Source: Candidatus Poseidoniaceae archaeon (lineage in GTDB: Archaea; Thermoplasmatota; Poseidoniia; Poseidoniales; Poseidoniaceae). Taken from it: 50,107 bases of DNA. Location: the NCBI GenBank assembly GCA_024958795.1, contig JANXHP010000021.1, positions 1 through 50,107 on the forward strand, written 5' to 3'. Positions 15,863 through 49,326 of the stretch are shown in pieces. Position numbers and translations under genes: made by a program. The first letter of the stretch is position 1, and each line of letters begins with the position of its first letter. The notes beneath the pieces were generated by a model that was not told the origin of the DNA, made no database searches, and saw only the letters and a program-made list of their open reading frames with translations.

Positions 15863-16531
15863 ATGCCTCTACTATCGCAGTGGGTTCGTCAGCGTCCTTG
15901 GTTGGCTGCTGGTCTGCTTGGTGCTACTGGAGGTTTGTCTGGGATTGCGGGTGGAATGGCCGCGGCTGCAAGCGCCATTGGAGCTATTACTCTTGGAGGA
16001 GTCTCAAGCAAATCCAAACACCAACATGAGCACCCACAGCGTTTGAGAATTCTCACTGCATTGGAAGTAAATCCTGGCTTATGTTATCGTGAATTACAAT
16101 CTGTTTTGAATACTGCAAATGGGACGCTACGGCATCATCTTGATGTTTTACAAGCCAGAAATAGTGTCATCATTATGCCAGTAAATGGAAGAACTTGTTA
16201 TTTCGTAGGTGCACCTAGTCAAATCGAAGAACTGAGAGGAATGAAATTAGGTGAACAAGCAGCAGCAAACGCCTTACCGATCGGTTTGTCATTAGTACAA
16301 AGATTGATTCTTGAAAATATTGACAAAGAGGGAGTCCCTCGATCTCAAGCTGAATTGGCACGCAGAATCGGTCGCTCAAGAGCAACTATTCATTCCGCTG
16401 TTAAAGTTCTAAGACGAAGAGGGATTCTGCGTGAAGATAGAGTTGAATTGATGCCACACATCAATATGGACATGACTTGGCATGGAACTGTGGCTGTGGA
16501 TTATGAATGGGACGACCGTCGTCGCGACTAA
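15863..16531 (+). CDS. Double winged-helix regulator with N-terminal hydrophobic segment (COG3398-like)
   Basis: RLRILTALEVNPGLCYRELQ...GTLRHHLDVL and a second HTH SQAELARRIGRSRATIHSAVKVL; Gly/Ala-rich hydrophobic N-terminus. Confidence 0.8.
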   Translation: MPLLSQWVRQRPWLAAGLLGATGGLSGIAGGMAAAASAIGAITLGGVSSKSKHQHEHPQRLRILTALEVNPGLCYRELQSVLNTANGTLRHHLDVLQARNSVIIMPVNGRTCYFVGAPSQIEELRGMKLGEQAAANALPIGLSLVQRLILENIDKEGVPRSQAELARRIGRSRATIHSAVKVLRRRGILREDRVELMPHINMDMTWHGTVAVDYEWDDRRRD

Positions 16532-16615: not shown

Positions 16616-17722
16616 ATGTTTAGTGTTCGATTACAGGAAGTCGCACTACCAACAAGTGATAGGGATATAGACAGTTTAGTCACTTGGTTTACAGATACGC
16701 TTTGTTTAGTTCGTAAAAAAGGCGATGCAATGGCTGATTATGGTTTGGCAAATCCAGTTCATCGATTACTTCGTGACCACCTTCTAACTTCTCCAGAAAT
16801 CGGCTGGGATGCACAGATGTTAGCAGATGAACTTGCATTAACTCCTGCATCCTTGAATCATCATCTAACTCGCTTGGTTGAGGCTGGAATAATTGGATAT
16901 ACCAATGAAGGTAAAGGATGGAGAAGATATTATTTGCGCGGTGGAAGTATTACTAATGCTGTTGAATTGTTTTCAGTCCAATGTAAAGCCATAATCAATC
17001 AAAGAATGTCTCTTCTTGCGGCTAACTGGGAGCGAGGTGACTGCCGATTAGCACTTGAACTTCCAGAAGAAGATGCTCCATCATTGTCACTTGGAATTGT
17101 TGACCACAGACCCCTTACTCCACAGACCAGTGAAAATTTGTTATCCCAATGGTTAGGTGATTTTGGCCTACTTGGAGAACGTCCTGGAAAGGAAATAAAT
17201 GCTGATTCTCTCTCATGCAAATTGTTTGAAATTCTTCTAAGTAGAAATGCGCCATTATCTCTTGATGAAGCGGCTGAACTACTCGATGGCCCAAAGCCAC
17301 GTATCGGACGTATTCTAGAGCGCTTTAGAGCATCTGGAATGGTTGAAAGAGTTGCTAGAACAGATCGACTTTCCATTTCGTTATGGTCTGCAATGATGGC
17401 TCAATATCAACGACGTGGTGAAGATTGGATGCTGAAGAAAGGAGGATTCAACCGAATCCTCAATGAAAATCAACAATCAAAGTTGATTCAAAAATTAAAG
17501 AAGAATAAGTTGAAAGTTGAAGATGTGGAATCTCAATTAAAGGATGTAAATTCCAAACAACAAATGCTTCTGTTAAACCTATTAGGAGGGCGTTTGCCCT
17601 TAGGTCACCGTCTTAGTGGGGAAACTCCTGAAGATGTGGCTCGTCGTGTCAATGAACGGTTAGACAAGGTATTACGACGTATGCGGCGTGTTGCAGAACT
17701 TCTCGTTTCTGCTCAAAATTGA
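16616..17722 (+). CDS. Tandem-duplicated winged-helix (ArsR/MarR-like) protein
   Basis: HTH1 AQMLADELALTPASLNHHLTRLVEAGII; HTH2 LDEAAELLDGPKPRIGRILERFRASGMV; each is preceded by a similar W-x-x-x-x-L segment. Confidence 0.8.
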   Translation: MFSVRLQEVALPTSDRDIDSLVTWFTDTLCLVRKKGDAMADYGLANPVHRLLRDHLLTSPEIGWDAQMLADELALTPASLNHHLTRLVEAGIIGYTNEGKGWRRYYLRGGSITNAVELFSVQCKAIINQRMSLLAANWERGDCRLALELPEEDAPSLSLGIVDHRPLTPQTSENLLSQWLGDFGLLGERPGKEINADSLSCKLFEILLSRNAPLSLDEAAELLDGPKPRIGRILERFRASGMVERVARTDRLSISLWSAMMAQYQRRGEDWMLKKGGFNRILNENQQSKLIQKLKKNKLKVEDVESQLKDVNSKQQMLLLNLLGGRLPLGHRLSGETPEDVARRVNERLDKVLRRMRRVAELLVSAQN

Positions 17723-18794: not shown

Positions 18795-19406
18795 TCAGAA
18801 TGTTGATTGCCACTCTTCGACATCTTGTTCCTTAGCCCAGTCTTCATCTGTGGTTTGTCCACGAAGTTTGAGTACTTCACGGGCTAGTAGCCAGTAAACT
18901 TGAGCAAGAGAGCGTCGACCTTTGTTATTTGCAGGTAATGCGATGTCCACATTGCGCAGGTTGTTATTTGCATCCACAATACCAACGATTGGTAGTCCAG
19001 AGTTAACCGCTTCAATCAATGCTTGTTGGTCAGCTGCTGGATCTGTTACAAAAAGAACATCTGGTTCAACATATGAACGAAGTACTGGATTGGTAAGAGA
19101 ACCTGGAATAAAACGACCGACCGCTGAATTTGCACCGATAGCCTCTGAGAAAAGACGTGCAGGTCTTTGTCCATATTGTCGTGCTGAAACGACCATAATA
19201 CGAGGGGATTCAAAATTGTTTAGGAAAGCAGCGATAGAACGGATGCGGGAATCTGTGATGTTTACGTTTAGAAGATATAATCCATCTTCGCGAACACGTT
19301 CAATAAATCTCATCATGTCTGCACTTTTCTGTTGAGTACCGATATTAACGGCATTCTCCTCATAAGTTTCAAACGGGAGCAATAATGTTGCTTCTTCATC
19401 GGACAT
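18795..19406 (-). CDS. rps2: 30S ribosomal protein S2 (archaeal uS2)
   Basis: NIGTQQKSADM, VSARQYGQRP, GRFIPGSLTNP, VTDPAADQQA, PANNKGRRSLA. Confidence 0.97.
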   Translation of the reverse strand: MSDEEATLLLPFETYEENAVNIGTQQKSADMMRFIERVREDGLYLLNVNITDSRIRSIAAFLNNFESPRIMVVSARQYGQRPARLFSEAIGANSAVGRFIPGSLTNPVLRSYVEPDVLFVTDPAADQQALIEAVNSGLPIVGIVDANNNLRNVDIALPANNKGRRSLAQVYWLLAREVLKLRGQTTDEDWAKEQDVEEWQSTF

Positions 19407-19565
19407 TAATAAACCTCAGCAAGCCGGCGACATAACCCCCATATTAAACCGCTTCGCACTAACAAAGGCAAACAAAAATACTGTGTTTAGTGAAATTACA
19501 ACAACCGTGGCGGGGGAGAATAAAAGAAAGAGCCCGTTCACACGAGGTCTACTGGGGGAATTTGC

Positions 19566-20753
19566 ATGGCTCAACAATCTCCAAAATCTGACCTAATAAA
19601 GGGTGCTGAACTGCATGAGGATGGTGTTTGGAGATTAGAAAACGGTGAACCTTTGAGAGTTAGTGCCAGTGATTTAGAACGACACGAATATTGTCCTCTC
19701 TCTTGGTCACTTGCGCGTGAAGGGAAAAGTGGCCAAGGTGAAGCGATTGTTGCCGGGATGGAAAAACACGCGGCAATTCACGGTCAAGTCAAAGACTATC
19801 AGCAGAAGCATTCAAAGTTACGTAGAGCGATGATAATATGGTCATGGTGGTTTGCTGTTGTACTTGTTTTTATTATAGATGCCATCATATTTTCATTAAT
19901 AGATGACATAGTTCATACTCCAGATTCAATCGCAAGGTATCTCGCTCTTTGGGCACTATCTCTCCTAATTACCAGTATTATTGCAGTATATCTGCCATGG
20001 AGAGAATGGGTCGGATGGACTGAGACTATTGCAAAATCAAAAATAGACTTTGAAGAAAGTAGTGAAGATGATATCATAGCTGTTTTCCAACCTCAAAGTT
20101 TCATTGGTGGGTGGTTTGAAGCGGGGCGTCTTGAAGCAGGGTTATTGTTTGCAGCAATTGCATTAGCCCTCCATGCAGTCGCTCTTATATGGGCTGATAA
20201 TAGAACTCAAGCAGGATTCTTGTTAGCAACAATTGCAATGACTTGGACACTATTGGCCTCTTGGCAATTACAAAAAGCACTACTTGCAGAGAATGCATTG
20301 GAAATTGCAAGAGAAATCGTAGGGTTACAAGAAAATACAAAAGTTGCATATTCTGATGATGACGATACTTCTGGCCTATTGACAGATCCAATAACCGGAC
20401 TACGTGGCCGCCCTGACCAAATAGTGATTGTCGATGGTGAATTTATCCCTGTTGAACAAAAAACCGGAAGAATACCAAAATTTCCACACCGTTCTCATAA
20501 GATGCAGGTCTTAGCGTATTTGCATTTGGTTGAAATCAGCACAAAGCGTCCAACACCTTACGGTGTTTTACGATATGGAAATGAAGATTTACATCAAATA
20601 TCTTGGGATGATTCAAACAAAGAAATGTTGTTTAATGCTATTACTGAAGTCCAGAGATTAATGGTTCAAAATGATGCAAAAAGAAATCACAATAGACCAG
20701 GAAAATGTAAAAATTGTTCACGCAATTATGCATGCCCTGATGCTTTAGTTTGA
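19566..20753 (+). CDS. cas4: Solo Cas4-like PD-(D/E)xK nuclease with four inserted transmembrane helices
   Basis: SASDLERHEYCP, G-x-x-x-H (AGMEKH), LRGRPD, PVEQKTG, QVLAY, C-terminal CKNC-x5-C; four hydrophobic stretches between about aa 89 and 235. Confidence 0.85.
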   Translation: MAQQSPKSDLIKGAELHEDGVWRLENGEPLRVSASDLERHEYCPLSWSLAREGKSGQGEAIVAGMEKHAAIHGQVKDYQQKHSKLRRAMIIWSWWFAVVLVFIIDAIIFSLIDDIVHTPDSIARYLALWALSLLITSIIAVYLPWREWVGWTETIAKSKIDFEESSEDDIIAVFQPQSFIGGWFEAGRLEAGLLFAAIALALHAVALIWADNRTQAGFLLATIAMTWTLLASWQLQKALLAENALEIAREIVGLQENTKVAYSDDDDTSGLLTDPITGLRGRPDQIVIVDGEFIPVEQKTGRIPKFPHRSHKMQVLAYLHLVEISTKRPTPYGVLRYGNEDLHQISWDDSNKEMLFNAITEVQRLMVQNDAKRNHNRPGKCKNCSRNYACPDALV

Positions 20754-20754
20754 T

Positions 20755-21306
20755 TCATTCTGCCGAACAAGGTCCTTCTAAAGGATATTCAACACATCTT
20801 TTTGTTATTGTCAATTGGATGTTGAAATTGTCATGAATAAGTCCAAGTGTTTCTTCACCTATTCCTCTTGCTTCAACATCAAGTACCCATTCACCTTTAG
20901 CAAATTCAGGTGTTGGCTCAAGAGTTTCTTCAACTGGTGCTGAATCTGAACTAACATCAACATTCCATTGAATTACCCCTTCCGAATCAGTTAATGTGGC
21001 TCTTACATACCTCGTATTATTTTCAAATTGTGGAAATAATTCAGAAAATGTAAATTGAGCCTTGAAATATACTGAAATTTCAGTAACAGAATCATCAACA
21101 ACAAACGTTGACTTATTTGTAAACGGCTGTATTTCTAATGTAGTATAGGTATGAGAAACGTATATTTTTTGGTAATCTAATGACCACTCAGCAGGATCTC
21201 TAAATCCTTCAATTGCTTCACGAGCTGGAATCAAGCCCAGACAACCCACAGTTGATGTCATCAACATTGTTAGAACAACAAGCATTGGCAATACTCTGCG
21301 TTGCAT
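20755..21306 (-). CDS. Secreted / lipoprotein-like hypothetical protein
   Basis: MQRRVLPMLVVLTMLMTSTVGC: basic N-region, hydrophobic core and lipobox-like VGC; beta-rich body. Confidence 0.75.
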   Translation of the reverse strand: MQRRVLPMLVVLTMLMTSTVGCLGLIPAREAIEGFRDPAEWSLDYQKIYVSHTYTTLEIQPFTNKSTFVVDDSVTEISVYFKAQFTFSELFPQFENNTRYVRATLTDSEGVIQWNVDVSSDSAPVEETLEPTPEFAKGEWVLDVEARGIGEETLGLIHDNFNIQLTITKRCVEYPLEGPCSAE

Positions 21307-21386
21307 CAAATATAGCCACTCTCTCTTTTGCTTTCAATACCTCCCCCCCTTGAGGCAAATTGAAGCCAAGTTGTGTTGTGAGTCAA

Positions 21387-21483: not shown

Positions 21484-24279
21484 TCATTCGAATTTAGCAC
21501 CGCAAGTACCGCACTCATTCGCTTCTACCGCAATATCTGCACCACATGCACCACATTCTGCAACTTCTGAAACTTCTTCTTTTCGTTTAGGAGCACGGCG
21601 TTTTGGTTTCTGTGCTTTCCTTGCCGCAGCAACTTCAGCATCGGACTTGGTAGATGCTGAAAGTGGGGCATCATCATCTACAAAGGTGAAATCTGTTGTT
21701 GATTCATTAACCTCATTTCCAGCAAATGAATTATCGGTTGCACTCATTCCAACTTCTACCTTTTCACCTGGCAATACTCCATCTTCACCAGTGACTTCGA
21801 ATATTTGCTCCCTAATTCCTGCATCACTTGCTGATAATTCCTTGCCATCATCCAAATGAGCGTGAAGTTCACGACCTTCTAGCATCTCGTCGATTCCAGC
21901 ACCAGAAGCGGCTTCTTTAGCACTCTTGAGCGTCGTAGTAACTTTGCTCTTATATTCTTCAATCTCTTCATCAGTGAGTCCTTCAAGCGCCATTTCGTCT
22001 GCATGTCTTCTATCGTATGCTGCTTCAACCTCTTCCTCAGCACTCTTCAGATTCTCATCCCATTCTTGCTCTAGTTGGTCTTCATCATAACCAAATTCTT
22101 GAACTGTTGATGCGAAATCTTCTGTTCCAGTGACGATTTCATCTTCATCTTCCTCAACTTCAATAGGAATATACTCTTTCTCTTCCACAACTCTTCTCTG
22201 CCTTTGTTCAAAGAATGATGATACATCTTGCTTAGAACCACAATATGGACAATCTTCCATCAAGTCCGGAATAGATTCTGAACATTCATGACAATCGTGG
22301 AATTGCTTTCTAGCCTTCTTTAAATTGAATGAGCAATGTGGACAACGGTCTTCATCACCTTCTAATTCACCATCACATGATGGACAATATTCGAAAATAT
22401 CTCTTTCAACTTCATCTTCTCTTTCCCTCGTTAGAATATATGCCACCACTAGTAATGCGACCAATCCCATAGCGCCACCACCAAGTAAAGTCATTGTTCC
22501 TTTAGTAGATGCTGCATTATTTGTTTCTCCATCATCGCCAGCTGCCGTTGGGAAGGCGCGTGTAAACATACTAGTTACAGTCATGTCTGATGGCGTAATT
22601 TTGATAGTACTAATTGGTGAAGAAGCAACGAAATTACAAGAAATAGATGCTCTATCACCTCTTTCTTCAATTGTCACAAGCATTGTCTCCAATAGATCTC
22701 CATTTCCATTATCACAATTGAAAGAAACATTACCCGTTTCAATACTGGTCATGTTTATTGACAATGTGTAAGCATCACCACTTTGTAATGGAACGGTTGC
22801 TGCATTACCAGAAATATCAGTCAATGAAATAGATGAATACACCCACTGTAATCTTAATGGAGCCTCAACCAAGATACTGCCTGTTGCTAAACTATTCAAT
22901 GGATTGCTATCCCAACTGGTGCTATGTGGAACCCACTGTGCTTCAAATTCAGCTGTGTGAGAACCGATTAATGTTGTCAGTGTAACGTCCCATGGTAGAG
23001 TTGCTCCTGCGTCAACATATATCCAATCTGATTCTGCTTGAGTTCCTTCCCAATCATATACAATTCTTCCTCGTACCTGGATGTCTCCAATGTTGGAAAT
23101 ACTAACTCTCCAAGTTACATCTTCACCAGAAGAGATTGATGAAGAAGATGGTATTGCATCTCCATCTACAAAAATATCTGGGATTGGAAAAATAGAAAGT
23201 TGCCCAGATTCTCTATCATTATCAGTTGTCTCTTGAATGAAACTACCTGCATTGAAAGGATCTATTTGTGCGGTGATAATATGTGAGCCTTCACTCAAAG
23301 AAGATATGTCGTTTATTGTCAGTACTTGACTCCAAGATGTCTCAGCATAGCCTGCACCTGTGAGAGTGACAGTGAATGGAGCCATCATTAGTAAGCCTCC
23401 ATTATCAGTTGGAATCTCAAGACGAACAGGAACATCAGTAGTGCCGGTTCCATTGGTTCTACCTAAAGTCCCTTCAATAGTCCATGGACCTTCTAAAGCG
23501 CCACTTTCAACAGTTACGGTTAATCCTCCAATATGGTAGACATCCATTCTTGTCTCAACTATCAAAGACTGTTCTACAATCTTGTTTAACTCTGAGGCTT
23601 CATGTACTTCTTCATAATAATCTGGATTCAGATAGATGGTATGAGTTCCACTTTCGGGAGCAATAAATGTTGTGTTAACCCATTGTGACTGACCAGCGAG
23701 TATTGCTGGAGTTGGCAAAAACTGTTCTTCACCACTGGATGAGGAAAAATGAAGGGTACTCGCTGATGCATCAACACTGCCTGTATTGGTAATGCGACTT
23801 GAGGCTGTAACATTATCGCCATAGTGAATACCACTTGCAGGTGATAATTCTGTTTCAACTACTCGTAAATTTGGCAAGCCTGTTACTACGAACTCGAGGT
23901 AAAATGATGCTTCAGTGTCGCCGTTAGCCTCAAATGTCACCCACACTTTGTGAGTTCCTTCAGTTACTGAATTCCATGATGTACTAACGTCTACTGTTGT
24001 TTCACCAAGAATATTGACAGTATTCGTTACAATCCTATAATCAGAATTTATTTCATCCTTGAAAAATGAGTATTCAACATCGAACGCATCAGTTTGTTGA
24101 GAATTGTAAAGTGTTAGTAAAATGGTGACATCATCACCTGCTTCAGGAGATGCTGGCAAGATGCTTAAAGTAGAAGAAGAGGCTTGAATTCCACCACTAG
24201 TTTCTGCTGAAACTGATAACGGAATCATTGTTAGTGCCAACAATACTACGACCAGCGTGGACTTCAACTCGTTCGCCAT
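21484..24279 (-). CDS. Membrane-anchored CARDB/Ig-like protein with cytoplasmic zinc ribbons and acidic linker
   Basis: Signal peptide; CARDB-like repeats (LPNLRV..., ITNTGSVDA..., E-x-x-E-x-NN-like ends); one TM (GGGAMGLVALLVVAYIL); CPSC/CPHC/CHEC/CPYC, an acidic stretch, terminal CGAC/CGTC. Start moved to 24279. Confidence 0.85.
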   Translation of the reverse strand: MANELKSTLVVVLLALTMIPLSVSAETSGGIQASSSTLSILPASPEAGDDVTILLTLYNSQQTDAFDVEYSFFKDEINSDYRIVTNTVNILGETTVDVSTSWNSVTEGTHKVWVTFEANGDTEASFYLEFVVTGLPNLRVVETELSPASGIHYGDNVTASSRITNTGSVDASASTLHFSSSSGEEQFLPTPAILAGQSQWVNTTFIAPESGTHTIYLNPDYYEEVHEASELNKIVEQSLIVETRMDVYHIGGLTVTVESGALEGPWTIEGTLGRTNGTGTTDVPVRLEIPTDNGGLLMMAPFTVTLTGAGYAETSWSQVLTINDISSLSEGSHIITAQIDPFNAGSFIQETTDNDRESGQLSIFPIPDIFVDGDAIPSSSSISSGEDVTWRVSISNIGDIQVRGRIVYDWEGTQAESDWIYVDAGATLPWDVTLTTLIGSHTAEFEAQWVPHSTSWDSNPLNSLATGSILVEAPLRLQWVYSSISLTDISGNAATVPLQSGDAYTLSINMTSIETGNVSFNCDNGNGDLLETMLVTIEERGDRASISCNFVASSPISTIKITPSDMTVTSMFTRAFPTAAGDDGETNNAASTKGTMTLLGGGAMGLVALLVVAYILTREREDEVERDIFEYCPSCDGELEGDEDRCPHCSFNLKKARKQFHDCHECSESIPDLMEDCPYCGSKQDVSSFFEQRQRRVVEEKEYIPIEVEEDEDEIVTGTEDFASTVQEFGYDEDQLEQEWDENLKSAEEEVEAAYDRRHADEMALEGLTDEEIEEYKSKVTTTLKSAKEAASGAGIDEMLEGRELHAHLDDGKELSASDAGIREQIFEVTGEDGVLPGEKVEVGMSATDNSFAGNEVNESTTDFTFVDDDAPLSASTKSDAEVAAARKAQKPKRRAPKRKEEVSEVAECGACGADIAVEANECGTCGAKFE

Positions 24280-24486
24280 GTAACTAAGCGTGGTATTGCG
24301 TAGCACTTGAACCCATCTCAAACCAAGTGCATTAGTTGTCAAGACTTTGAGATGTTATTACGCGCCAAAAGAACAGATAATTTTGGAAATGATATGATTT
24401 TGGCAAATGTTATTACCTTCACTAAATTGTAAAAAGAAGCAATTCTAAGGGTAGCATTGAAGGCTGAGCCCAAACGTCTCTAGGGT

Positions 24487-40999: not shown

Positions 41000-43876
41000 T
41001 CATGGTTTTTTACGCATTAAATATGCAACTAATAATGAAAATACTAATCCACTCGCAATCCACATAGTAGTGCCATTACTCAACGCTCCACCGAAGAGCC
41101 CGGTATCTTGCTGACTTTCAACCGTAAACTCAATGTTTTGACGATTGACTACTCCTGTTTCAACTGGTTCTGAAGAAAGTGTGAACTTGAATGTATCTTC
41201 CATTTCCGCACCGCTTGGAGGACGTACGATCACTTCGACAAGCACTGAAGCACCAACATCTATCCAGCATAGTAATTCTCCTCCATCAGGGATGCATTCA
41301 AAATCACTATCGAGAGATACGCTCCAACCACGTAAATTTTCAGATGCGAATATTCTCACTTCTGAGCGTATGTTACCAGTATTGTGCAATTCAATTTCAA
41401 ATTGTGTCTTTTCCGAGAATGAAACCTTGTATTCTGTATCAATATTTTCATCCATAAAGGTGAGCTCATAAATAATTTGTACATCTAATGCAACCGTAGC
41501 CCTTCCAGAACGATTGGCAGAATTTGACTCACTCATTACCACTATTTCCAACACTCCACCATCTCCAGTTTCAGCACTTGGATTAACAATGAGTGTAAGC
41601 AAAAAGTATTGTTCAAATGGTCTTGCTTCATGGCCAACCATCAAATCTAATTCTAACATTCTAGATTCAACACCACTTTTACTAGATTCAGTGACTGGTG
41701 TTCCGGATTGGTCAATCGCAAATTCTCCTCTTGTAAGATTCCAAATCCCATATCCAATTGGGATTTGTACCGGGTCTTCAACCGCCATACCATTCATCCT
41801 CAATGTCCTAGTTGCAAGCCCTTCTAGTCCACTGATTTCAAAGACAGCATTATCTCTACCATCGCCTGTATTCTTGACCCAGACGCCGTATTCTTTGACA
41901 CCATTTGGAGCGAGTGTTGCCATACCAGTACGCCCATCTAGGCCACCATCTTCTAATCGAAGATCCATCTGGAAATTTCTATCCGATTGTATTGCAAGCA
42001 TGGTCAATTCTCTTTGGTTATCCGGTATACCATCCTCATCCAAATCTTGTGAATTTGTATCATCTTTATTGGTAATTCGAATGGTTAATCTGGTACTGTC
42101 TAATTCTTCCTCACCATCAATACTCACTACGAGATAGACGACCATTGTAGACCTAGGCGCAATATCAATTTCTGTAAATTGGTTTCCGTCAGCATCTTCG
42201 AATGATGTTGCCCAATTAGGTGTAGATGTTTGTGACATTACTGCACATCGGAATGTGTCTTCTACATTACCGCGATTCTCAATTGAAATCGGGAATCTAA
42301 CTTCGGTATCAGAACGACCAGTTTGGTCTTCAATGCTAGAAACTACATCCATGCCGTGGTTTGCGGCAACTGTAACCGATAATGTAATCTCAGCGAAAAC
42401 AATTCCTCCATTATTGGACAGTACAGATAGCACGATTTCTATTTGCTCATCTGCGAGTGCATCAAATGGTACATTCACTTGAACTTCAACATCTCCACTT
42501 CTTTCGCTTCCATGCTTAGAACCGAGTGTTATCGATGATTTTGATAGTTGAACACTCCAGCCTTGTGGTGGTGATGATGAAGATATTTTGAAAGTATCAG
42601 CACCGTTACCTTGGTTTGTTACTGTCAGTGTTGTAGTGCCATTATCTCCTGGTTGGATATTTGGTAATAATGAACTAACTAATGATAGTGAAGCATCATG
42701 TGATTGACCCAGAATAATTCTAATGTCCTGTGTACACTTAACGGAACTACTTTCTTTGCCTTGAATTGCAACAACCGATTCTGACCCCGCTTCAACGGAA
42801 TCATCAGGATTAACTTTTAGATTGAAAGTTTTTGTTCCAGATCCACCATCATATTCAAGCAATCCTGAACTTGCACCATCAACACTTACCCATCCGGCTT
42901 TTGAACCAGATTTCCCAACTGTAATCGTCCAATCTACATTTCCATCATTTGTGAAAGTTGCAGAGAAAGTCCCCTCAGCACCAGGTGCTACAGTAATGGA
43001 GCTTTTACTCAGACTCATTGAACATTCGTGCAATTCTGGAACTGTTAAATCAAATTCTTGTGTATCGGTTGTACCTTGTGATGGGTCGTTGCTTACTAAA
43101 CCATCAACATCCCAACAATACTTGTCTGCTGCTTGTCCTTCTGGCACTTCAACTGAAACGGTTACAAATTCACTTTCATTGGCATCAACACTTACTGAAG
43201 ATTCACTTAGAGTAACGCTAATAGCTCCTGCATTAGAACAACCAGGACCGGATGCTTCGTTAGTAGTCAAAGTGATTGTTTCATTTGTTTGACCAGTATT
43301 CTCAACCTCAAGGCTGTATTCAACAACACTTTCACCACCCCAAGTTTTTGAAGGAGATGACATCTTCAAATCTACACCAAATACTGCACTACCAGAACCA
43401 TCACCAGCAGTAGTAGTAACTGTTGAAGTTTCTTGGGCTGGAGCACCTGGTACATCTGGAGGTGTTGCTTGTTCGTTCGCGGAAACAGTGACAGTGGTAT
43501 CACAACTACCCTCTGCTGTTTGAGTCAATGTTACATTCATTGCTGTCTCTTCATATGTTCCAGCATCAATTTGACCAGAAATTTGACTCGCTTGTGAAGA
43601 GTATTGGCCACATTCTTGAGTTCCTTCTTCACTTGAAGAGATTGTCACTGTCACTGGATTTGAACCTGTGTTACGAACACGAATTGTATATTCTCCCGAT
43701 TCACCTGGATTTATTTCCAAACTATTTGGGATCATTGTGACAGTTATTGAAGCGTCACGTGCCCCATCCGCAGAAACGGCTGGAGCCATAATAGGAATCA
43801 AAGAGAATAACAGTAAAGCCATTAGGAAAATAGCAGCCTTTGACTGCTTCCTTGTCTGATGTTTACGGGAGTCCAT
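41000..43876 (-). CDS. Large secreted multi-Ig-like surface protein (COG1470/NEW3-like repeats) with C-terminal TM
   Basis: Signal peptide; repeated x-PG-x...V-x-N-x-GN modules and GW-x-V motifs; C-terminal TM followed by RKKP. Start moved to 43876. Confidence 0.85.
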   Translation of the reverse strand: MDSRKHQTRKQSKAAIFLMALLLFSLIPIMAPAVSADGARDASITVTMIPNSLEINPGESGEYTIRVRNTGSNPVTVTISSSEEGTQECGQYSSQASQISGQIDAGTYEETAMNVTLTQTAEGSCDTTVTVSANEQATPPDVPGAPAQETSTVTTTAGDGSGSAVFGVDLKMSSPSKTWGGESVVEYSLEVENTGQTNETITLTTNEASGPGCSNAGAISVTLSESSVSVDANESEFVTVSVEVPEGQAADKYCWDVDGLVSNDPSQGTTDTQEFDLTVPELHECSMSLSKSSITVAPGAEGTFSATFTNDGNVDWTITVGKSGSKAGWVSVDGASSGLLEYDGGSGTKTFNLKVNPDDSVEAGSESVVAIQGKESSSVKCTQDIRIILGQSHDASLSLVSSLLPNIQPGDNGTTTLTVTNQGNGADTFKISSSSPPQGWSVQLSKSSITLGSKHGSERSGDVEVQVNVPFDALADEQIEIVLSVLSNNGGIVFAEITLSVTVAANHGMDVVSSIEDQTGRSDTEVRFPISIENRGNVEDTFRCAVMSQTSTPNWATSFEDADGNQFTEIDIAPRSTMVVYLVVSIDGEEELDSTRLTIRITNKDDTNSQDLDEDGIPDNQRELTMLAIQSDRNFQMDLRLEDGGLDGRTGMATLAPNGVKEYGVWVKNTGDGRDNAVFEISGLEGLATRTLRMNGMAVEDPVQIPIGYGIWNLTRGEFAIDQSGTPVTESSKSGVESRMLELDLMVGHEARPFEQYFLLTLIVNPSAETGDGGVLEIVVMSESNSANRSGRATVALDVQIIYELTFMDENIDTEYKVSFSEKTQFEIELHNTGNIRSEVRIFASENLRGWSVSLDSDFECIPDGGELLCWIDVGASVLVEVIVRPPSGAEMEDTFKFTLSSEPVETGVVNRQNIEFTVESQQDTGLFGGALSNGTTMWIASGLVFSLLVAYLMRKKP

Positions 43877-43963
43877 GACTCCCGCACAAGCCATCACTAT
43901 CATAAGGCTATGCTCAGTTGTGTATAAAATTGATATTTGTGAGCAATTTTTTATTTTCGGACA

Positions 43964-46900
43964 TTATTCTTTTATGAATTTATTTGCAGGTGCTTGACAG
44001 TTATTACACAGTTCCAATTTTGAAATGTCGCAATCATCTCTTGCAGTTCCGTGATATCTTGCACCACAGGAAGGACATCCCAAAATATCCTCTGAAACAG
44101 GCGACTTGCATATCCAACACATCACCATTGGTTCTGTGCTATTTTGTTGTTCAACTTCATTCGTTGGTAGTGGCTGAATAATTTTAGGTGGTATGAATGA
44201 CTGTGATAGTGGTGCAGCTATTGATGCTGCAATTTGATTTGTTAAAGGCGAAGTAAGATTGTTAATTGGCTGCAATTCTTTTTCGCTAGTAGTCAAATTA
44301 TTTCTATACAATACTACCCCTATTAATGATAATAATACTAAGATGATAATTATTGCAACCCCGTTATTGATGAATGATTCACTTGAAGTCCCTGTAGGCT
44401 CACCTTCAGCATTGACATCAAATGAAACACTCGGATTTGAAAGCAAATGTGATTCTTCAAATTGTAATGTGATAGTTCCATCACCAGGCCTATCAGCCCT
44501 CACATTGATTCTAACAATCTTTGACTGACCTGCTTCAAGAGAGATGATATCATTACCGGTTACCTCAGAAAACCAATCCTTTGACGCGTTGGCATTGATT
44601 TTATATGACCACGCTACATTACCAGAATTTGTTATTTCAATTGATACCGTTTCTGTGATTCCGGTTTTGAATTCTTCAGTTCTACTCACATCCCAAATAG
44701 CAGATTCTACCGATGCAACATACAAACTAATTTGTTCAATATATTCTACTCCATTTCCTTCCAATGTTACTGTGAAGGTAGGTTCACTAGCTGGAGCCAT
44801 ATTTCCTGAAATTAGAATTGAACATTGTAGTAATTTGAACTCTAAATATCCTACAACTCCAACGCTTTGGCACTCACCAAATAATCCCGGATCTAATAAT
44901 AAAGAAAGGGAAGGCTCCCAATCAACATCTGCATTGTTGCCTACTAGCCAAGTAAAATTGAGACTCTCTCCACTCGGATGTGAACCTGGACCTAACGGGT
45001 GTTCGTAAGTAGTACCATCTGCAAATTGAAGAGTTGTGAAATCTAAAGTTGGTTGTGCTAATATTTCAACGTCAATATAACCTGTCCATGAATATCTGTC
45101 TGAGCCATTGTCTAGATTGAACTTTACTTCTCCTGATTTTCCTAAACCTTGAGAATTGACTACTACTATTATGTTAGAAGTAGTTGCCCAAGGTAATTGA
45201 ATTACATCAGTTGAAGAAGCCCACTGCCAACCACTTGGTAATTCAATAGAAGGCGTCAAACCTAAATCGATATTTCCACTATGCTGGATGCTAAACATTA
45301 GACTGAGGCTAGAATCTGGCCTCAATTTGCCAAAGTTATTCTGCAAGTCAATATCAATTTCTCTAATCTCCATTACTTTAATTGGAATATTATAAACATA
45401 GGAGACTGGGTTTTCTGTTTGTGAAACTGCAGTTAATTTCACCATTCGCTCAGCACCTGCTCCAGTCATCACCTGTGGTGGAGTGAAAGTAATTCCGATG
45501 TTTTTCTGTCCATCTTGTGCAATCAATCCGGTTGAACCGGAAATCGCACCTGGCTCACTACCTAAGTCATCAAATCCTGCTTGCCAACCTGCTGGAGCTT
45601 CTAAGAAAAGATCGTAGCCAATATTGTCATTACCAATATTGAAGAATCTAATATCCATACTTGTTGTATTGACTGGATGTACTGGAACGATTTGATAATC
45701 ATATTCAAGATTGACTTTAGAAAGACTTGGAACTACCAAATCTAGGGCGTATGGATAAGTCACTCCATTATCCACATCAATACCGATCAAACTAATTCGA
45801 TATGTTCCTGGGTCTGGAGGTGTTGGGTGAACTAATGTTACCGTAATCTCAGCCGATTCTTGCCCTGCAAGCGAGTGGTTTGATTGTGTTGTTCCAACAT
45901 ACCAAGAAATTGCCACATTATTTTCCACATGAATCAAACTATCAACCAGCAATGAGGCATTGGTCGCAATCAATGCTGTATTGGTCAGAGAAACATTCCA
46001 TGATGTCGCAGATGACTGAGTGTTGTCAAGTGTTGTTATTTGTGTTTCACTTGACAATTTCACACCGGGTGCAGTAACGTTTACAATAATATTATGTTGA
46101 TTATTATTTTCAGGTATTTCTTCAAGGTTTTCATCGGGGTCTATCGTGAAAGAAAGTGTTGATTGGCCAGCAGTTGCTGGTGTCCATGTCCAAAACATGG
46201 ACTTAGTAGAACCTGCTCCCAAATCGATATTCTTACGAGTAATCTCGGTTGAATCAACAGAGAATACAACATCGAAGGACTCGGCTTTCACATTTCCAGC
46301 ATTGAATACTTTAGTCTCAATGTGAACTGGATCGCCTACTTGAGGAATGCTAACATCCATTGAAAAATCATTGACCATCACCATCGGGTCAGGCCGTAAA
46401 TCGTTAACACCATGGCCCATTACTGCGATAGAATAAGTTTGAGCAGAACTGCCCCCCTGATAGGTATTTTTCGCTTTTACAGTCCATACTCCACTCATTG
46501 CATTATCCAATAATACAACTTCCATGTTATTGGTATCATCTGCACTTCCTCCTGTGGTTGAACGACCATTTGCAAAATCATTTCCTTTGTATATTGTTCC
46601 ATCTGGAGAAGTAACAATCAAATCTAAATTATTAACTAATTTTTTATTTGAAAATGTTGACCCTCTCTCATCTGACCAAGCCAATACAACCTTGAATTTT
46701 CCATTATTTTGTGTCAAATTAAATGAATACGATTTGGAATTTCCAGTACCTGAAAGTACCGACCTATCATCAACCCAAATCCCTTGGCCGCTTTGAGGAG
46801 CAAGGGTTTCTCTTAGATTGATTCGACCCCAACCTTCATCATCATTTGGAATATCTCTAGTTCCGATATCTTGAGCCCCTAGAACTAACAAAGCCTTGAC

Positions 46901-48571
46901 CAAAGCACCTTGGGGAGCTGGTCGCTGGGCTATTTCCTCAAGGTACTCTCTAACCATCGCTGCAGCTCCTGCTGCATTTGGAGTCGCCATAGAAGTACCT
47001 GTATACTCAAGATACCAATTATTTGACCAAGTTGAACCTGAAGTATCGGTCGCTTCTTGCGCGCGGCACGAGCGAACATATCCACCTGGCGCTATGACAT
47101 CCGGTTTTATTCTGCCATCATCTGTAGGCCCTCGGCTTGAACCACTCATCAAAGTGTCAGGTGCGCCTGAATAGCGATTTTGGTGATTACCGACTGAAAG
47201 AATGTTTTTTGCAGTAGCAGGAGGTGAAACTGTTCCAGTCCCTGGCCCATCATTTCCAGCCGCAAATAGAATTGTTAATCCGTCTCTACCATTGTAATAC
47301 CTGTCATAATAATTTGCCCTATCATCAACATCCTCTGCTTCAGAATCATATTTTCCTTGTTGACTTGCATCACTTGAACCCCATGAATTAGTATGGGTTC
47401 GCGCTCCTGAACTATATGCTGAATTCATCAAATAATTTAGAGAAGGTGATTGGAAATTACCGGTATTGTCATTCTCCATTGCTTGGAAATACAATTCCGC
47501 TGAAGGTGCAACTCCTGCATATCCACCTTTGCTACCATCTCCTAAAACCGTACATGAAACATGAGTTCCATGGCCAGAATGTTTGTCTGCGGTAGAACCG
47601 TCTCCAATTACATCATTACTACTAATCAATCTTGTACCGAAATCACCATGATCATCGTCCAAACCAGAATCTGCAACTGCAATAATCTGACCCGAACCAT
47701 CTAAATCCGTTGTAAAGTATGATTTCATCACTGTTGTCTTCATATGACTTCGAGCGTTATCATTATCAATGGAAAATTGCGGATTAAAACGGAAGGAACG
47801 AACACTTGGTTGTAGTATGATTTCTGCTATTTGTTCACTATTCAATTGTCCTTGATAACGCCCTTCATCCCACTTTATTATTTCAGATAGCCCAACTTTG
47901 GAAACTTCTTCAAGTGACTGGGAAATAGTAAATCCTTGTTCATCAATTAGTTCTACTGAATCAACAGGACCGAAATCATCCCTCCATCCTTCAAGTCTCA
48001 TCGTTTGCCCCTGTAGAGCAATATTTCCATCTGTTAACATCATAATATCCAATATTGCGCCATCAATTAACAATGCTAATGGTACTTGATGAGTTGCTAC
48101 AACTCCTTGTATGCTACTCGCTTGTTGAATTGAATTTGTGGTAGCTTGAATGATTAAACCGGAAGGTGCAATGAATTCTCTTATCATCAATCCTTGAATA
48201 TCATTCAATTGTTGTCTTGCTTGTTCCATCCTTATCGAATCATCTACAATCAATAAGGCAAGGTCTGGCCGCGCTTGCATCAATTCCATTGGAATTGGCC
48301 TAGATGCAGTAAACCCAAATTGGTCAAAATCACCAATCCGTGATGACGCGATACTCGGCCTTATTTCTAAAGAATAAGTATCATCATATTCACCAACTGC
48401 ATCGGAATAAACTCCGTCAACTAAATCAAATCTAACCCACTCGGTTTGATTCTCATCCAATTGAGATGCATCATTATTTTCACCCGTAGGGTGAAGTATT
48501 GGACTTAGGCTTTGTAATACGAATATCACAACTAAGCACAACGCCATCCTCAGTGAACTACTGGTTTGCAC
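43964..48571 (-). CDS. Membrane-anchored S8 subtilisin-like serine protease with CARDB/Ig repeats and C-terminal Cys/His finger
   Basis: Triad VADSG, HGTH, GTSMATP; oxyanion AAGNDG; KP-43-like SSRGPTDDGRIKPD and GWGR; CARDB; TM; Cys-rich tail. GTG start at 48571 inferred from promoter spacing. Confidence 0.92.
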   Translation of the reverse strand: MQTSSSLRMALCLVVIFVLQSLSPILHPTGENNDASQLDENQTEWVRFDLVDGVYSDAVGEYDDTYSLEIRPSIASSRIGDFDQFGFTASRPIPMELMQARPDLALLIVDDSIRMEQARQQLNDIQGLMIREFIAPSGLIIQATTNSIQQASSIQGVVATHQVPLALLIDGAILDIMMLTDGNIALQGQTMRLEGWRDDFGPVDSVELIDEQGFTISQSLEEVSKVGLSEIIKWDEGRYQGQLNSEQIAEIILQPSVRSFRFNPQFSIDNDNARSHMKTTVMKSYFTTDLDGSGQIIAVADSGLDDDHGDFGTRLISSNDVIGDGSTADKHSGHGTHVSCTVLGDGSKGGYAGVAPSAELYFQAMENDNTGNFQSPSLNYLMNSAYSSGARTHTNSWGSSDASQQGKYDSEAEDVDDRANYYDRYYNGRDGLTILFAAGNDGPGTGTVSPPATAKNILSVGNHQNRYSGAPDTLMSGSSRGPTDDGRIKPDVIAPGGYVRSCRAQEATDTSGSTWSNNWYLEYTGTSMATPNAAGAAAMVREYLEEIAQRPAPQGALVKALLVLGAQDIGTRDIPNDDEGWGRINLRETLAPQSGQGIWVDDRSVLSGTGNSKSYSFNLTQNNGKFKVVLAWSDERGSTFSNKKLVNNLDLIVTSPDGTIYKGNDFANGRSTTGGSADDTNNMEVVLLDNAMSGVWTVKAKNTYQGGSSAQTYSIAVMGHGVNDLRPDPMVMVNDFSMDVSIPQVGDPVHIETKVFNAGNVKAESFDVVFSVDSTEITRKNIDLGAGSTKSMFWTWTPATAGQSTLSFTIDPDENLEEIPENNNQHNIIVNVTAPGVKLSSETQITTLDNTQSSATSWNVSLTNTALIATNASLLVDSLIHVENNVAISWYVGTTQSNHSLAGQESAEITVTLVHPTPPDPGTYRISLIGIDVDNGVTYPYALDLVVPSLSKVNLEYDYQIVPVHPVNTTSMDIRFFNIGNDNIGYDLFLEAPAGWQAGFDDLGSEPGAISGSTGLIAQDGQKNIGITFTPPQVMTGAGAERMVKLTAVSQTENPVSYVYNIPIKVMEIREIDIDLQNNFGKLRPDSSLSLMFSIQHSGNIDLGLTPSIELPSGWQWASSTDVIQLPWATTSNIIVVVNSQGLGKSGEVKFNLDNGSDRYSWTGYIDVEILAQPTLDFTTLQFADGTTYEHPLGPGSHPSGESLNFTWLVGNNADVDWEPSLSLLLDPGLFGECQSVGVVGYLEFKLLQCSILISGNMAPASEPTFTVTLEGNGVEYIEQISLYVASVESAIWDVSRTEEFKTGITETVSIEITNSGNVAWSYKINANASKDWFSEVTGNDIISLEAGQSKIVRINVRADRPGDGTITLQFEESHLLSNPSVSFDVNAEGEPTGTSSESFINNGVAIIIILVLLSLIGVVLYRNNLTTSEKELQPINNLTSPLTNQIAASIAAPLSQSFIPPKIIQPLPTNEVEQQNSTEPMVMCWICKSPVSEDILGCPSCGARYHGTARDDCDISKLELCNNCQAPANKFIKE

Positions 48572-48645
48572 AAGTTGAGGGCTAACCTGCCCCGTTTTAT
48601 CGCTTCGGGTGCATTGATTGTATAGAACATCAATACAATAGTGGT

Positions 48646-49326
48646 TCAAGAGTTAGGCCAAGTAGTTTTATCGCCTTCATCGATAAAAATCTCACTCGAC
48701 CAATGTCCAACTGAGTGATACCAATCTTGACGGTTATCATTTCCATTAAAATCAGTCCATTCTAAATGCGTATGAACTACATAATTATCCCATACAGTAT
48801 AACCAGAAACTAGCATTTCTAATTCATCCCCTGCAATCGAAGAATGTGCTGAAACTTTGTCTATTTCAACTCTCATATTATCAAGTACCAAACCATCTAC
48901 ATCTTGGAATTCTACATGGATCACAACATCAGTAATTTCTCTACTTCCGTCGTTAGATAACTCAGACATCATTAAATGTCCACCGCGTTGCATATAATGT
49001 GTTTCAAGCACAACTGAATCTCTTGGTAGAACCCAATACCATCCACTGAGAACGACACCTATCATCAAGAGGATAACAACACCTGCTAATACAACTTGAT
49101 AAGGGTCGACTTCAGACACTTTTTCGCGAAGTAATTTTGCTGCCTCTTGGGCTCGTTCCCAATCCTCTCTTTCTTCTTCATTATCGCTATCAAATGCGCC
49201 TAATTCCGCTTGTTTATCCATACTTCTAGCCATCAATCCGCCGACTTCTTTAATATCGTCTTCATGAACTAATAGTTCACCATCTCGACCTTTTGCGATT
49301 GTCTTTGATTCAGAATTATCTACCAT
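48646..49326 (-). CDS. Hypothetical single-pass membrane protein
   Basis: Acidic N-terminus, one TM (VVLAGVVILLMIGVVLSGWYWVL), beta-rich C-terminal domain. Confidence 0.75.
   Translation of the reverse strand: MVDNSESKTIAKGRDGELLVHEDDIKEVGGLMARSMDKQAELGAFDSDNEEEREDWERAQEAAKLLREKVSEVDPYQVVLAGVVILLMIGVVLSGWYWVLPRDSVVLETHYMQRGGHLMMSELSNDGSREITDVVIHVEFQDVDGLVLDNMRVEIDKVSAHSSIAGDELEMLVSGYTVWDNYVVHTHLEWTDFNGNDNRQDWYHSVGHWSSEIFIDEGDKTTWPNS

Follow-up and report, generated by a model that had tools for sequence, protein, structure and literature searches.

The stretch of DNA analysed here (the window) comprises positions 1-50,107 of contig JANXHP010000021.1, from a Candidatus Poseidoniaceae archaeon (assembly GCA_024958795.1). 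Its subject is a gene at positions 19566 to 20753 of the forward strand that encodes a nuclease of the Cas4 family, the fold of which is predicted to be interrupted by four transmembrane (TM) helices and to be rebuilt, from the two halves thus separated, on the cytoplasmic side of the membrane. The gene and its parts are listed below; KD denotes the best Kyte-Doolittle mean over 19 residues, and Fe-S stands for iron-sulphur.

19566-20753, + strand: whole gene of the predicted membrane-inserted Cas4-family nuclease, 395 residues; stop codon at 20751-20753
19653-19790, + strand: N-terminal Cas4 piece, residues ~30-75, SASDLERHEYCP; aligns to the N-terminus of 4R5Q and contains the invariant C43
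19692-19694, + strand: codon of the predicted Fe-S ligand C43, invariant in 90 sequences
19767-19769, + strand: codon of the predicted metal ligand H68, conserved in at least 90% of sequences
19827-19901, + strand: predicted TM helix 1 (TM1), residues ~88-112, KD 2.56; runs on from the H68 helix in the model
19926-19994, + strand: predicted TM2, residues ~121-143, KD 2.11; forms hairpin 1 with TM1, outer loop 113-121
19995-20126, + strand: loop 2, residues 144-187; acidic, poorly conserved, modelled with low confidence, predicted cytoplasmic
20127-20192, + strand: predicted TM3, residues ~188-209, KD 2.27
20211-20273, + strand: predicted TM4, residues ~216-236, KD 1.32; forms hairpin 2 with TM3, carries the near-invariant W227, and its helix extends to residue 252
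20331-20750, + strand: C-terminal catalytic core, residues 256-395, with Pfam, NCBIfam, alignment and structural matches
20406-20417, + strand: core motif GRPD
20454-20462, + strand: core motif EQK
20505-20519, + strand: core motif QxxxY
20706-20735, + strand: core motif CxxCx5C

A preliminary description of the locus, made from the letters alone, had reported that the four Fe-S cysteines and the RecB-type motifs are intact, and the translation bears this out. The protein has no cysteines other than C43, C381, C384 and C390, which are arranged as E41-Y42-C43-P44 towards the N-terminus and C381-K-N-C384-x5-C390 at the C-terminus, and the motifs are represented by H68, G281-R-P-D284, E297-Q-K299 and Q314-x3-Y318. 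In an alignment of 90 sequences (A1), Y42, C43, G281, P283, D284, K299, H311, C381, C384 and C390 are invariant, while at least 90% of the rows keep H68, E297, Q314 and Y318. Two Pfam families exceed their gathering cut-offs, PF01930 (Cas_Cas4; 36.0 bits against 22.7) and PF12705 (PDDEXK_1; 37.1 bits against 22), with both matches confined to residues ~250-391. The NCBIfam equivalog for cas4, TIGR00372, reaches 60.8 bits over model positions 65-179 of 180 and misses its cut-off of 65 bits; the insertion displaces the N-terminal third of the model. A phmmer comparison with Protein Data Bank sequences returned a weak, two-ended match to the Cas4 protein 4R5Q, in which residues 31-64 pair with chain positions 55-89 and residues 276-323 with positions 118-161, and therefore ~170-180 residues are extra in the query. 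The Pfam scores, the four catalytic motifs, the four-cysteine pattern and a complete predicted fold together strongly indicate that the gene encodes an intact Cas4-family PD-(D/E)XK nuclease with a predicted [4Fe-4S] site.

That the membrane segment lies within the nuclease fold, as had been proposed, is supported by an AlphaFold2 model calculated on A1 (mean predicted local distance difference test score, pLDDT, 78.8; predicted template modelling score 0.68). Residues 9-395 of the model superpose on residues 5-200 of the Cas4 chain 7MI4_A (Z 18.9, root-mean-square deviation 2.8, 180 residues), followed by 8D3L_I (Z 18.7), with AdnA, Exo5 and Dna2 ranking lower (Z 11-14), and Foldseek gives Dna2, SSO0001 and type I-C Cas4 as its best matches. 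As the superposition extends over a whole Cas4 domain, the halves, which are distant in sequence, are predicted to rebuild one such domain and, going by the superposition alone, both of them would close the Fe-S site. The long helices of the model span residues 59-112, 119-142, 188-209 and 213-252; the first and the last of these link the nuclease to TM1 and TM4, respectively, and the course of the H68 helix straight into TM1 suggests a fairly rigid mounting near the membrane. A homodimer complex prediction scored 0.00 ('no answer') and is informative neither way.

H68 and G281 are 212 residues apart, and the hydrophobic block occupies residues ~88-236. The preliminary description had placed four strongly hydrophobic helices here; the number stands, but the strength does so only for three of them, TM4 being moderately hydrophobic (the median of its KD across 59 Poseidoniales rows is 1.50). 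A conserved stretch, GGWFEAGR, directly precedes TM3, and residues 153-186 of the disordered loop 2 have a pLDDT below 50. The hydrophobicity, model helices of 22-50 residues, their even number and the distribution of lysine and arginine (K+R) predict an integral membrane protein. In the 90 sequences, the mean K+R count is 4.13 in the N-terminal flank, 0.31 in loop 1 (9 residues), 3.79 in loop 2 (43 residues), 0.88 in loop 3 (7 residues) and 2.93 in the C-terminal flank; by the positive-inside rule, the N- and C-termini would therefore both be inside, with the nuclease in the cytoplasm. This agrees with the earlier argument that an even number of helices keeps both halves on the same side, and relatives with 2, 4 or 8 helices point the same way. 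It is thus strongly indicated that both nuclease pieces face the cytoplasm, the compartment in which Fe-S clusters are assembled, and that the external loops are tiny (~7-9 residues). Such short loops and a cytoplasmic nuclease speak for a tethered enzyme rather than a trans-membrane device, and an exonuclease at work on DNA in transit through the membrane, as had been suggested, finds no support here. Pfam matches within the TM region (Pho86, DUF6249 and GT87) are all far under their cut-offs, and the top scores of an ESM Atlas search with residues 82-252 (0.76-0.78, from Thermoplasmatota clusters) are below lead level.

On profile comparison, the insertion reads as two tandem homologous copies of a TM hairpin. 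Aligned by hhalign, hairpin 1 (residues 82-150) and hairpin 2 (residues 180-250) reach a score of 48.7 with a probability of 97%, compared with 19.2 and 21.8 for reversed-order controls and 5.2-10.7 for 20 column shuffles. The same architecture had been suggested as something to seek in other lineages, and it is found across the Thermoplasmatota in forms with 2, 4 and 8 helices. An exhaustive search of representatives yielded 695 proteins at E<=0.001; helices between the first cysteine and the cysteine triad were counted in the best 150 representatives, using the 70 complete ones, in which the Cys motif at the N-terminus and the triad at the C-terminus are both present. There are two helices in 21 of these, four in 32 and eight in 13, none has zero or six, and the odd counts of the other four (three with one helix, one with seven) probably reflect a helix just under the crude threshold, to judge from protein lengths. 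A quick tree built from the nuclease domain alone (64 rows, two of 66 having been dropped for a missing motif anchor) shows the helix-number classes clustered: it needs 17 changes, whereas the shuffles average 34.4 and none of 200 is as low. Its deep branches are poorly resolved (33 of the 61 inner branches are open), and no order of events is drawn from it. The hairpin copy number (1, 2 or 4) might tune oligomerisation or membrane localisation.

In one lineage (f36, four of four loci) and in the protein P0222, one or two C-terminal TRAM domains (PF01938; E 6e-6 to 1.5e-15) are fused to the nuclease:

L144:7686-9809 (-), L149:2429-4384, L150:450-2405, L151:2467-4647 (-) and P0222: TRAM-fused homologues

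TRAM is an RNA-binding domain, described in Pfam as nucleic-acid binding, and the fusion would add a nucleic-acid-binding module on the cytoplasmic side, possibly hinting at a single-stranded nucleic acid or RNA substrate. In these f36 homologues, which have eight helices, the open frame reaches back beyond its first ATG/GTG/TTG and there encodes the N-terminal Cas4 piece with a YGFCP cysteine (L149:2429-2641, L150:450-704, L144:9486-9809 on the - strand and L151:4399-4647 on the - strand). In all four genomes the 71-108 codons ahead of that triplet hold no canonical start, and a non-canonical start or a frame change seems likely.

Some relatives depart from the common plan. Proteins P0324-P0338, of ~173 residues, consist of one N-terminal hydrophobic helix and the core with its cysteine triad, with no N-terminal Cys piece, and may represent either a single-pass form or genes that have been split. 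A two-helix member of 898 residues (L147:7998-10694, -) has an N-terminal extension of ~600 residues with no Pfam family, PDDEXK_1 matching at 636-894 only, and its upstream neighbour is a 1153-residue CBS-domain protein. One two-helix relative is labelled as a protein of a Dehalococcoidia bacterium metagenome-assembled genome, which is thin evidence for a bacterial occurrence of the family.

In a word-indexed search the protein has 1074 homologues at E<=0.001, some of them on contigs of up to megabase size. Among the best 120, 114 are 389-427 residues long, with at least 97% query coverage and 59-100% identity, and the remaining six are shorter (78-98% coverage). The genome from which the window comes, 87% complete, holds one copy of the gene, and 99 of the 151 genomes examined from the order Poseidoniales carry it uninterrupted by stops (74/74 in family f1, 2/2 in f2 and 22/74 in f3). 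Its presence is all-or-none per genus, 15 of 22 sampled Poseidoniales genera being positive; the seven gene-less genera have genomes of 1.3-1.6 Mb, and a profile search confirms the absence. The two-helix form P0163 found no match in five genomes of gene-less genera, in a search run without a positive control genome. Across the Thermoplasmatota, the A1 profile (E<=1e-5) detects the family in 215 of the 301 genomes sampled; among those of high quality the count is 149 of 214, and 102 of 137 genera are represented. Carriers include genomes closed as one contig (G200 and G262 of f30; G305, G339 and G356 of f35). Full-length homologues and this spread through the order and the phylum rule out an assembly chimera, which had been named as a possible objection, or a mis-called open reading frame, and we regard the chance of either as negligible.

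The preliminary description had also presented the gene as independent of clustered regularly interspaced short palindromic repeats (CRISPR), noting neither cas1/cas2 nor repeats in the window, and both statements are confirmed. A Pfam scan of the 38 open reading frames of the window detected no cas gene, no CRISPR-like array was found in it, and no Cas1 was detected in the genome at its 87% completeness. At the settings used for the family, Cas1 (PF01867) is detected in 73 of the 301 Thermoplasmatota genomes, and therefore at least 142 genomes have the gene and no detectable Cas1. In the family to which the window belongs, the membrane Cas4 is in 42 of 42 genomes and Cas1 in none of them, and in the order Cas1 is found in one of 63 sampled genomes. 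The gene thus stands away from cas loci, as solo-Cas4 genes do, and not next to cas1/cas2 and an array, as do the Cas4 genes of CRISPR adaptation. All this strongly indicates a CRISPR-independent, single-copy and vertically inherited gene. Some of its homologues carry the database names 'Dna2/Cas4 domain-containing protein [Candidatus Poseidoniales archaeon]' or 'CRISPR-associated exonuclease Cas4', labels that conceal the membrane-inserted architecture.

The membrane form is an addition to, and not the sole representative of, such enzymes in its genome, since this also encodes soluble Cas4/AddB-like Fe-S nucleases with N-terminal Cys and C-terminal Cys motifs. One has 393 residues (G000:C12:3344-4525, equivalent to L163:1465-2646), and a tandem pair lies on G000:C46 (L166:811-2571, 586 residues, and an open frame of ~615 residues from 2588 onward). 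A six-frame search of the genome with PF01930 missed the membrane Cas4 itself and was thus not used to judge absence, whereas PF12705 found both the gene and its soluble relatives. Besides its intact copy, a genome of the same genus has a second, diverged copy (G062:C6:85804-86948; 39-58% identity, 3-4 in-frame TGA codons), which would be either a paralogue in decay or a copy that is read differently.

The immediate surroundings of the gene are as follows.

18795-19406, - strand: ribosomal protein S2 gene (rpS2), a conserved divergent neighbour
19407-19565, no strand: divergent intergenic region of 159 bp shared with rpS2, the presumed promoter region, in which no element was identified
20755-21309, - strand: convergent neighbour encoding a 184-residue protein with no Pfam family; its hydrophobic N-terminus, ending in Cys, is lipoprotein-like by eye

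Synteny was followed in 80 contigs, the best 80 of a contig scan and all of them from Poseidoniales: rpS2 lies upstream in divergent orientation in 79, Dus accompanies the gene in 73, the gene for the 184-residue protein is convergent downstream in 70, and a 952-residue CARDB protein is encoded in 73. The gene behaves like a housekeeping gene that is inherited vertically beside ribosomal-protein genes. L15e adjoins eight of the loci of the eight-helix form, either upstream on the same strand (L141, L143, L149 and L151) or convergent (L156, L159, L160 and L162), and among 18 diverse and 14 further loci GlmS is convergent in three. The window further holds two adjacent genes at 15863-16531 and 16616-17722 for duplicated winged-helix helix-turn-helix (HTH) proteins (MarR/ArsR/TrmB-like), which are upstream in 63 and 65 of the 80 loci; they give weak PADLOC matches to Csa3/CARF models through the HTH, and the two flanking neighbours have no PADLOC match. 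Three large surface-type proteins are encoded on the - strand: the 952-residue CARDB protein (21484-24342; zinc ribbons, tail very acidic), a 967-residue protein with Ig-like repeats (41000-43903) and a 1561-residue subtilase with CARDB (43964-48649). Three oligo-dT marine RNA libraries from one study match the region (each at 0.04 of the sampled words) and a fourth run gave nothing; the RNA contigs, of 151-336 nt and 90-97% identity, lie over rpS2, the 5' end of the gene and ~20078-20358, but DNA carry-over is possible and they are too thin a basis for transcription.

The reading that we tentatively favour, while placing it a little below an even chance, is, by analogy with the bacterial nuclease SNIPE, that of a membrane-tethered Cas4 nuclease handling DNA at the inner face of the membrane, most plausibly foreign DNA entering the cell. 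The two hairpins split the Cas4 fold, and the nuclease halves are predicted to reassemble in the cytoplasm as one domain, held near the inner membrane surface by the two long flanking helices. Such a tether would keep a rather non-specific DNA nuclease off the nucleoid and, at the same time, station it at the membrane, where single-stranded DNA or free DNA ends would arise, the substrate most plausibly being viral, other foreign or imported DNA, which the enzyme would nick or resect as it comes in. An action on incoming DNA had been put forward in the preliminary description and seems a reasonable supposition by analogy. A link to uptake or viral entry is, however, not borne out by the gene neighbourhoods, which show no consistent uptake, pilus, virus or defence genes. 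In one of the 18 diverse loci (L132:2906-13374, lineage f39), the gene lies within a cluster that resembles those of type IV pili and shares its strand; the other members encode a T2SSE-type ATPase, a 663-residue protein that belongs to no family, two prepilin peptidases (A24) and a HerA-like ATPase.

Several points weigh against this reading. The catalytic activity, the binding of a cluster, the insertion into the membrane and the topology are all predicted, and the hydrophobicity of TM4 is moderate only. No conserved functional partner appears in the 18 diverse and 14 further loci, which are housekeeping regions, no defence island was found, and no link of the gene to DNA entry has been observed. 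PADLOC models hit the protein only through the nuclease core (Cas4, Cas4-Cas1 and DruK models, residues 259-391), and an insensitive, pattern-based search of viral contigs gave 55 matches, none of which was confirmed as a relative. Vertical inheritance, synteny with ribosomal genes and all-or-none presence by genus are unlike the patchy occurrence typical of defence genes, and the absence from seven of 22 genera implies that the gene is dispensable. A more specific version, drawn from the same analogy, in which a phylum-wide, vertically inherited 'gatekeeper' would destroy viral or other foreign DNA on entry at the inner face and tell self from non-self by location and not by sequence, is unlikely.

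The features that sit uneasily with defence would suit a housekeeping role in DNA maintenance at the membrane, in which the enzyme would work on flaps, on trapped DNA or on the ends of chromosomal DNA, for instance when the chromosome is repaired or segregated, when its replication terminates or when the cell divides. The gene is core-like; it is present as a single copy, is inherited vertically and keeps a conserved synteny among housekeeping genes. Its fold family holds the repair and replication nucleases AdnA/AddB, Dna2, Exo5 and MGME1 (Z 10-14), and FtsZ or Cdc6 is nearby in three loci, possibly by chance. We nonetheless consider this rather unlikely, though somewhat less so than the gatekeeper version: a gene missing from seven sampled genera is not essential, the soluble Cas4/AddB-like Fe-S nucleases of the same genome could serve repair, and the 18 diverse loci show no linked Mre11/Rad50 or NurA and a single HerA-like gene, at one locus.

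The ribosomal-protein neighbours (rpS2 in 79 of 80 Poseidoniales loci, L15e at loci of the eight-helix form), the tRNA-modification genes Dus, Trm1 and TruD nearby and the TRAM fusions of f36 and P0222 might instead speak for an RNA substrate or a translation-linked role, for example at membrane-bound ribosomes. This is improbable, as the characterised close structural relatives are all DNA nucleases, TRAM is confined to one lineage, and the orientation of the neighbours varies by lineage (divergent, convergent or same strand), consistent with inherited synteny. TRAM-like OB (oligonucleotide/oligosaccharide-binding) folds, moreover, bind single-stranded DNA too. Since the Fe-S cluster would bridge the halves across the insertion, its loss could in principle undock them, and the protein might be a membrane Fe-S sensor or scaffold with a nuclease activity that is secondary or lost; in the accessible part of the report on the Methanosarcina mazei solo-Cas4, the cluster is dispensable for catalysis (PMC12501428). 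The invariance or near-invariance of D284, E297, K299, H68, Q314 and Y318 in the 90 sequences argues for retained catalysis, however, and makes this the most improbable of the roles considered.

A conserved, membrane-wired Cas4 would be a previously unrecognised deployment of the enzyme. It is also rare for a polytopic membrane segment to lie, as here, within a soluble catalytic fold, the two halves of which an Fe-S cluster probably joins. Should the protein guard the entry of DNA, as in the reading favoured here, 'defence by location' would extend to archaea and solo-Cas4 would gain a concrete role. If the gatekeeper version were true, the protein would be an archaeal, Cas4-based counterpart of the bacterial nuclease SNIPE, and Cas4 would have a free-standing immune role in CRISPR-less lineages, of which Marine Group II is an example. 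The Poseidoniales count among the most numerous archaea in the ocean's surface waters and, going by Cas1, are almost without CRISPR in the genomes sampled. If chromosome or RNA metabolism is concerned instead, the protein would point to an unrecognised membrane-linked nucleic-acid process in the Thermoplasmatota.

The Cas4 family and solo-Cas4 are known; what appears new here is a Cas4-family nuclease with predicted membrane helices inside its fold. The Cas4 proteins of CRISPR systems (7MI4, 8D3L, 4IC1 SSO0001 and 4R5Q) share with it the fold, the H/D/ExK/QxxxY motifs and the C...CxxCx5C ligands, whereas the protein described here has ~170-180 extra residues, with four predicted TM helices, between the His helix and the first core strand, and comes from a genome in which no Cas1, Cas2 or CRISPR was found. 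Archaeal solo-Cas4 proteins likewise lie outside cas loci, according to the available portions of a 2017 survey (Hudaiberdiev et al., PMC5704561) and of the M. mazei study, in which the enzyme is an oligomeric [4Fe-4S] nuclease cutting both double- and single-stranded DNA (PMC12501428); as described in these portions they are soluble, unlike the membrane-inserted form. In its available text, the survey of Cas4 phylogenomics nowhere uses 'transmembrane', and its lone mention of 'membrane' is unrelated (PMC5704561). The open full-text literature, in its main texts, yielded no description of a membrane-bound, membrane-anchored, membrane-associated or transmembrane Cas4, and the one listed paper that joins Poseidoniales and Cas4 concerns viruses of Bathyarchaeia. 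A 'novel Cas4-like clade' reported in mSphere in 2026 is, in the part available, a DUF2779-DEDD fusion with no membrane helices.

AddB/AdnA, Dna2, Exo5 and ACE1 share the nuclease core and an Fe-S cluster that staples N- and C-terminal elements (Z 11-14), but they are soluble and usually helicase-fused or Argonaute-partnered, and the matched entries have no membrane insertion. In Escherichia coli, the membrane anchor of SNIPE prevents cleavage of self DNA and positions the nuclease at the site of phage injection, where it cuts phage DNA as this is injected; the available part of that report does not mention archaea (PMC13190303). SNIPE differs from the protein described here in its unrelated GIY-YIG fold, its single N-terminal TM helix, its DUF4041 and its bacterial, patchy distribution as a defence gene, again as far as the available part goes. 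The likeness between the two is one of functional analogy only: in both, a nuclease is, or is predicted to be, tethered on the cytoplasmic face of the membrane.

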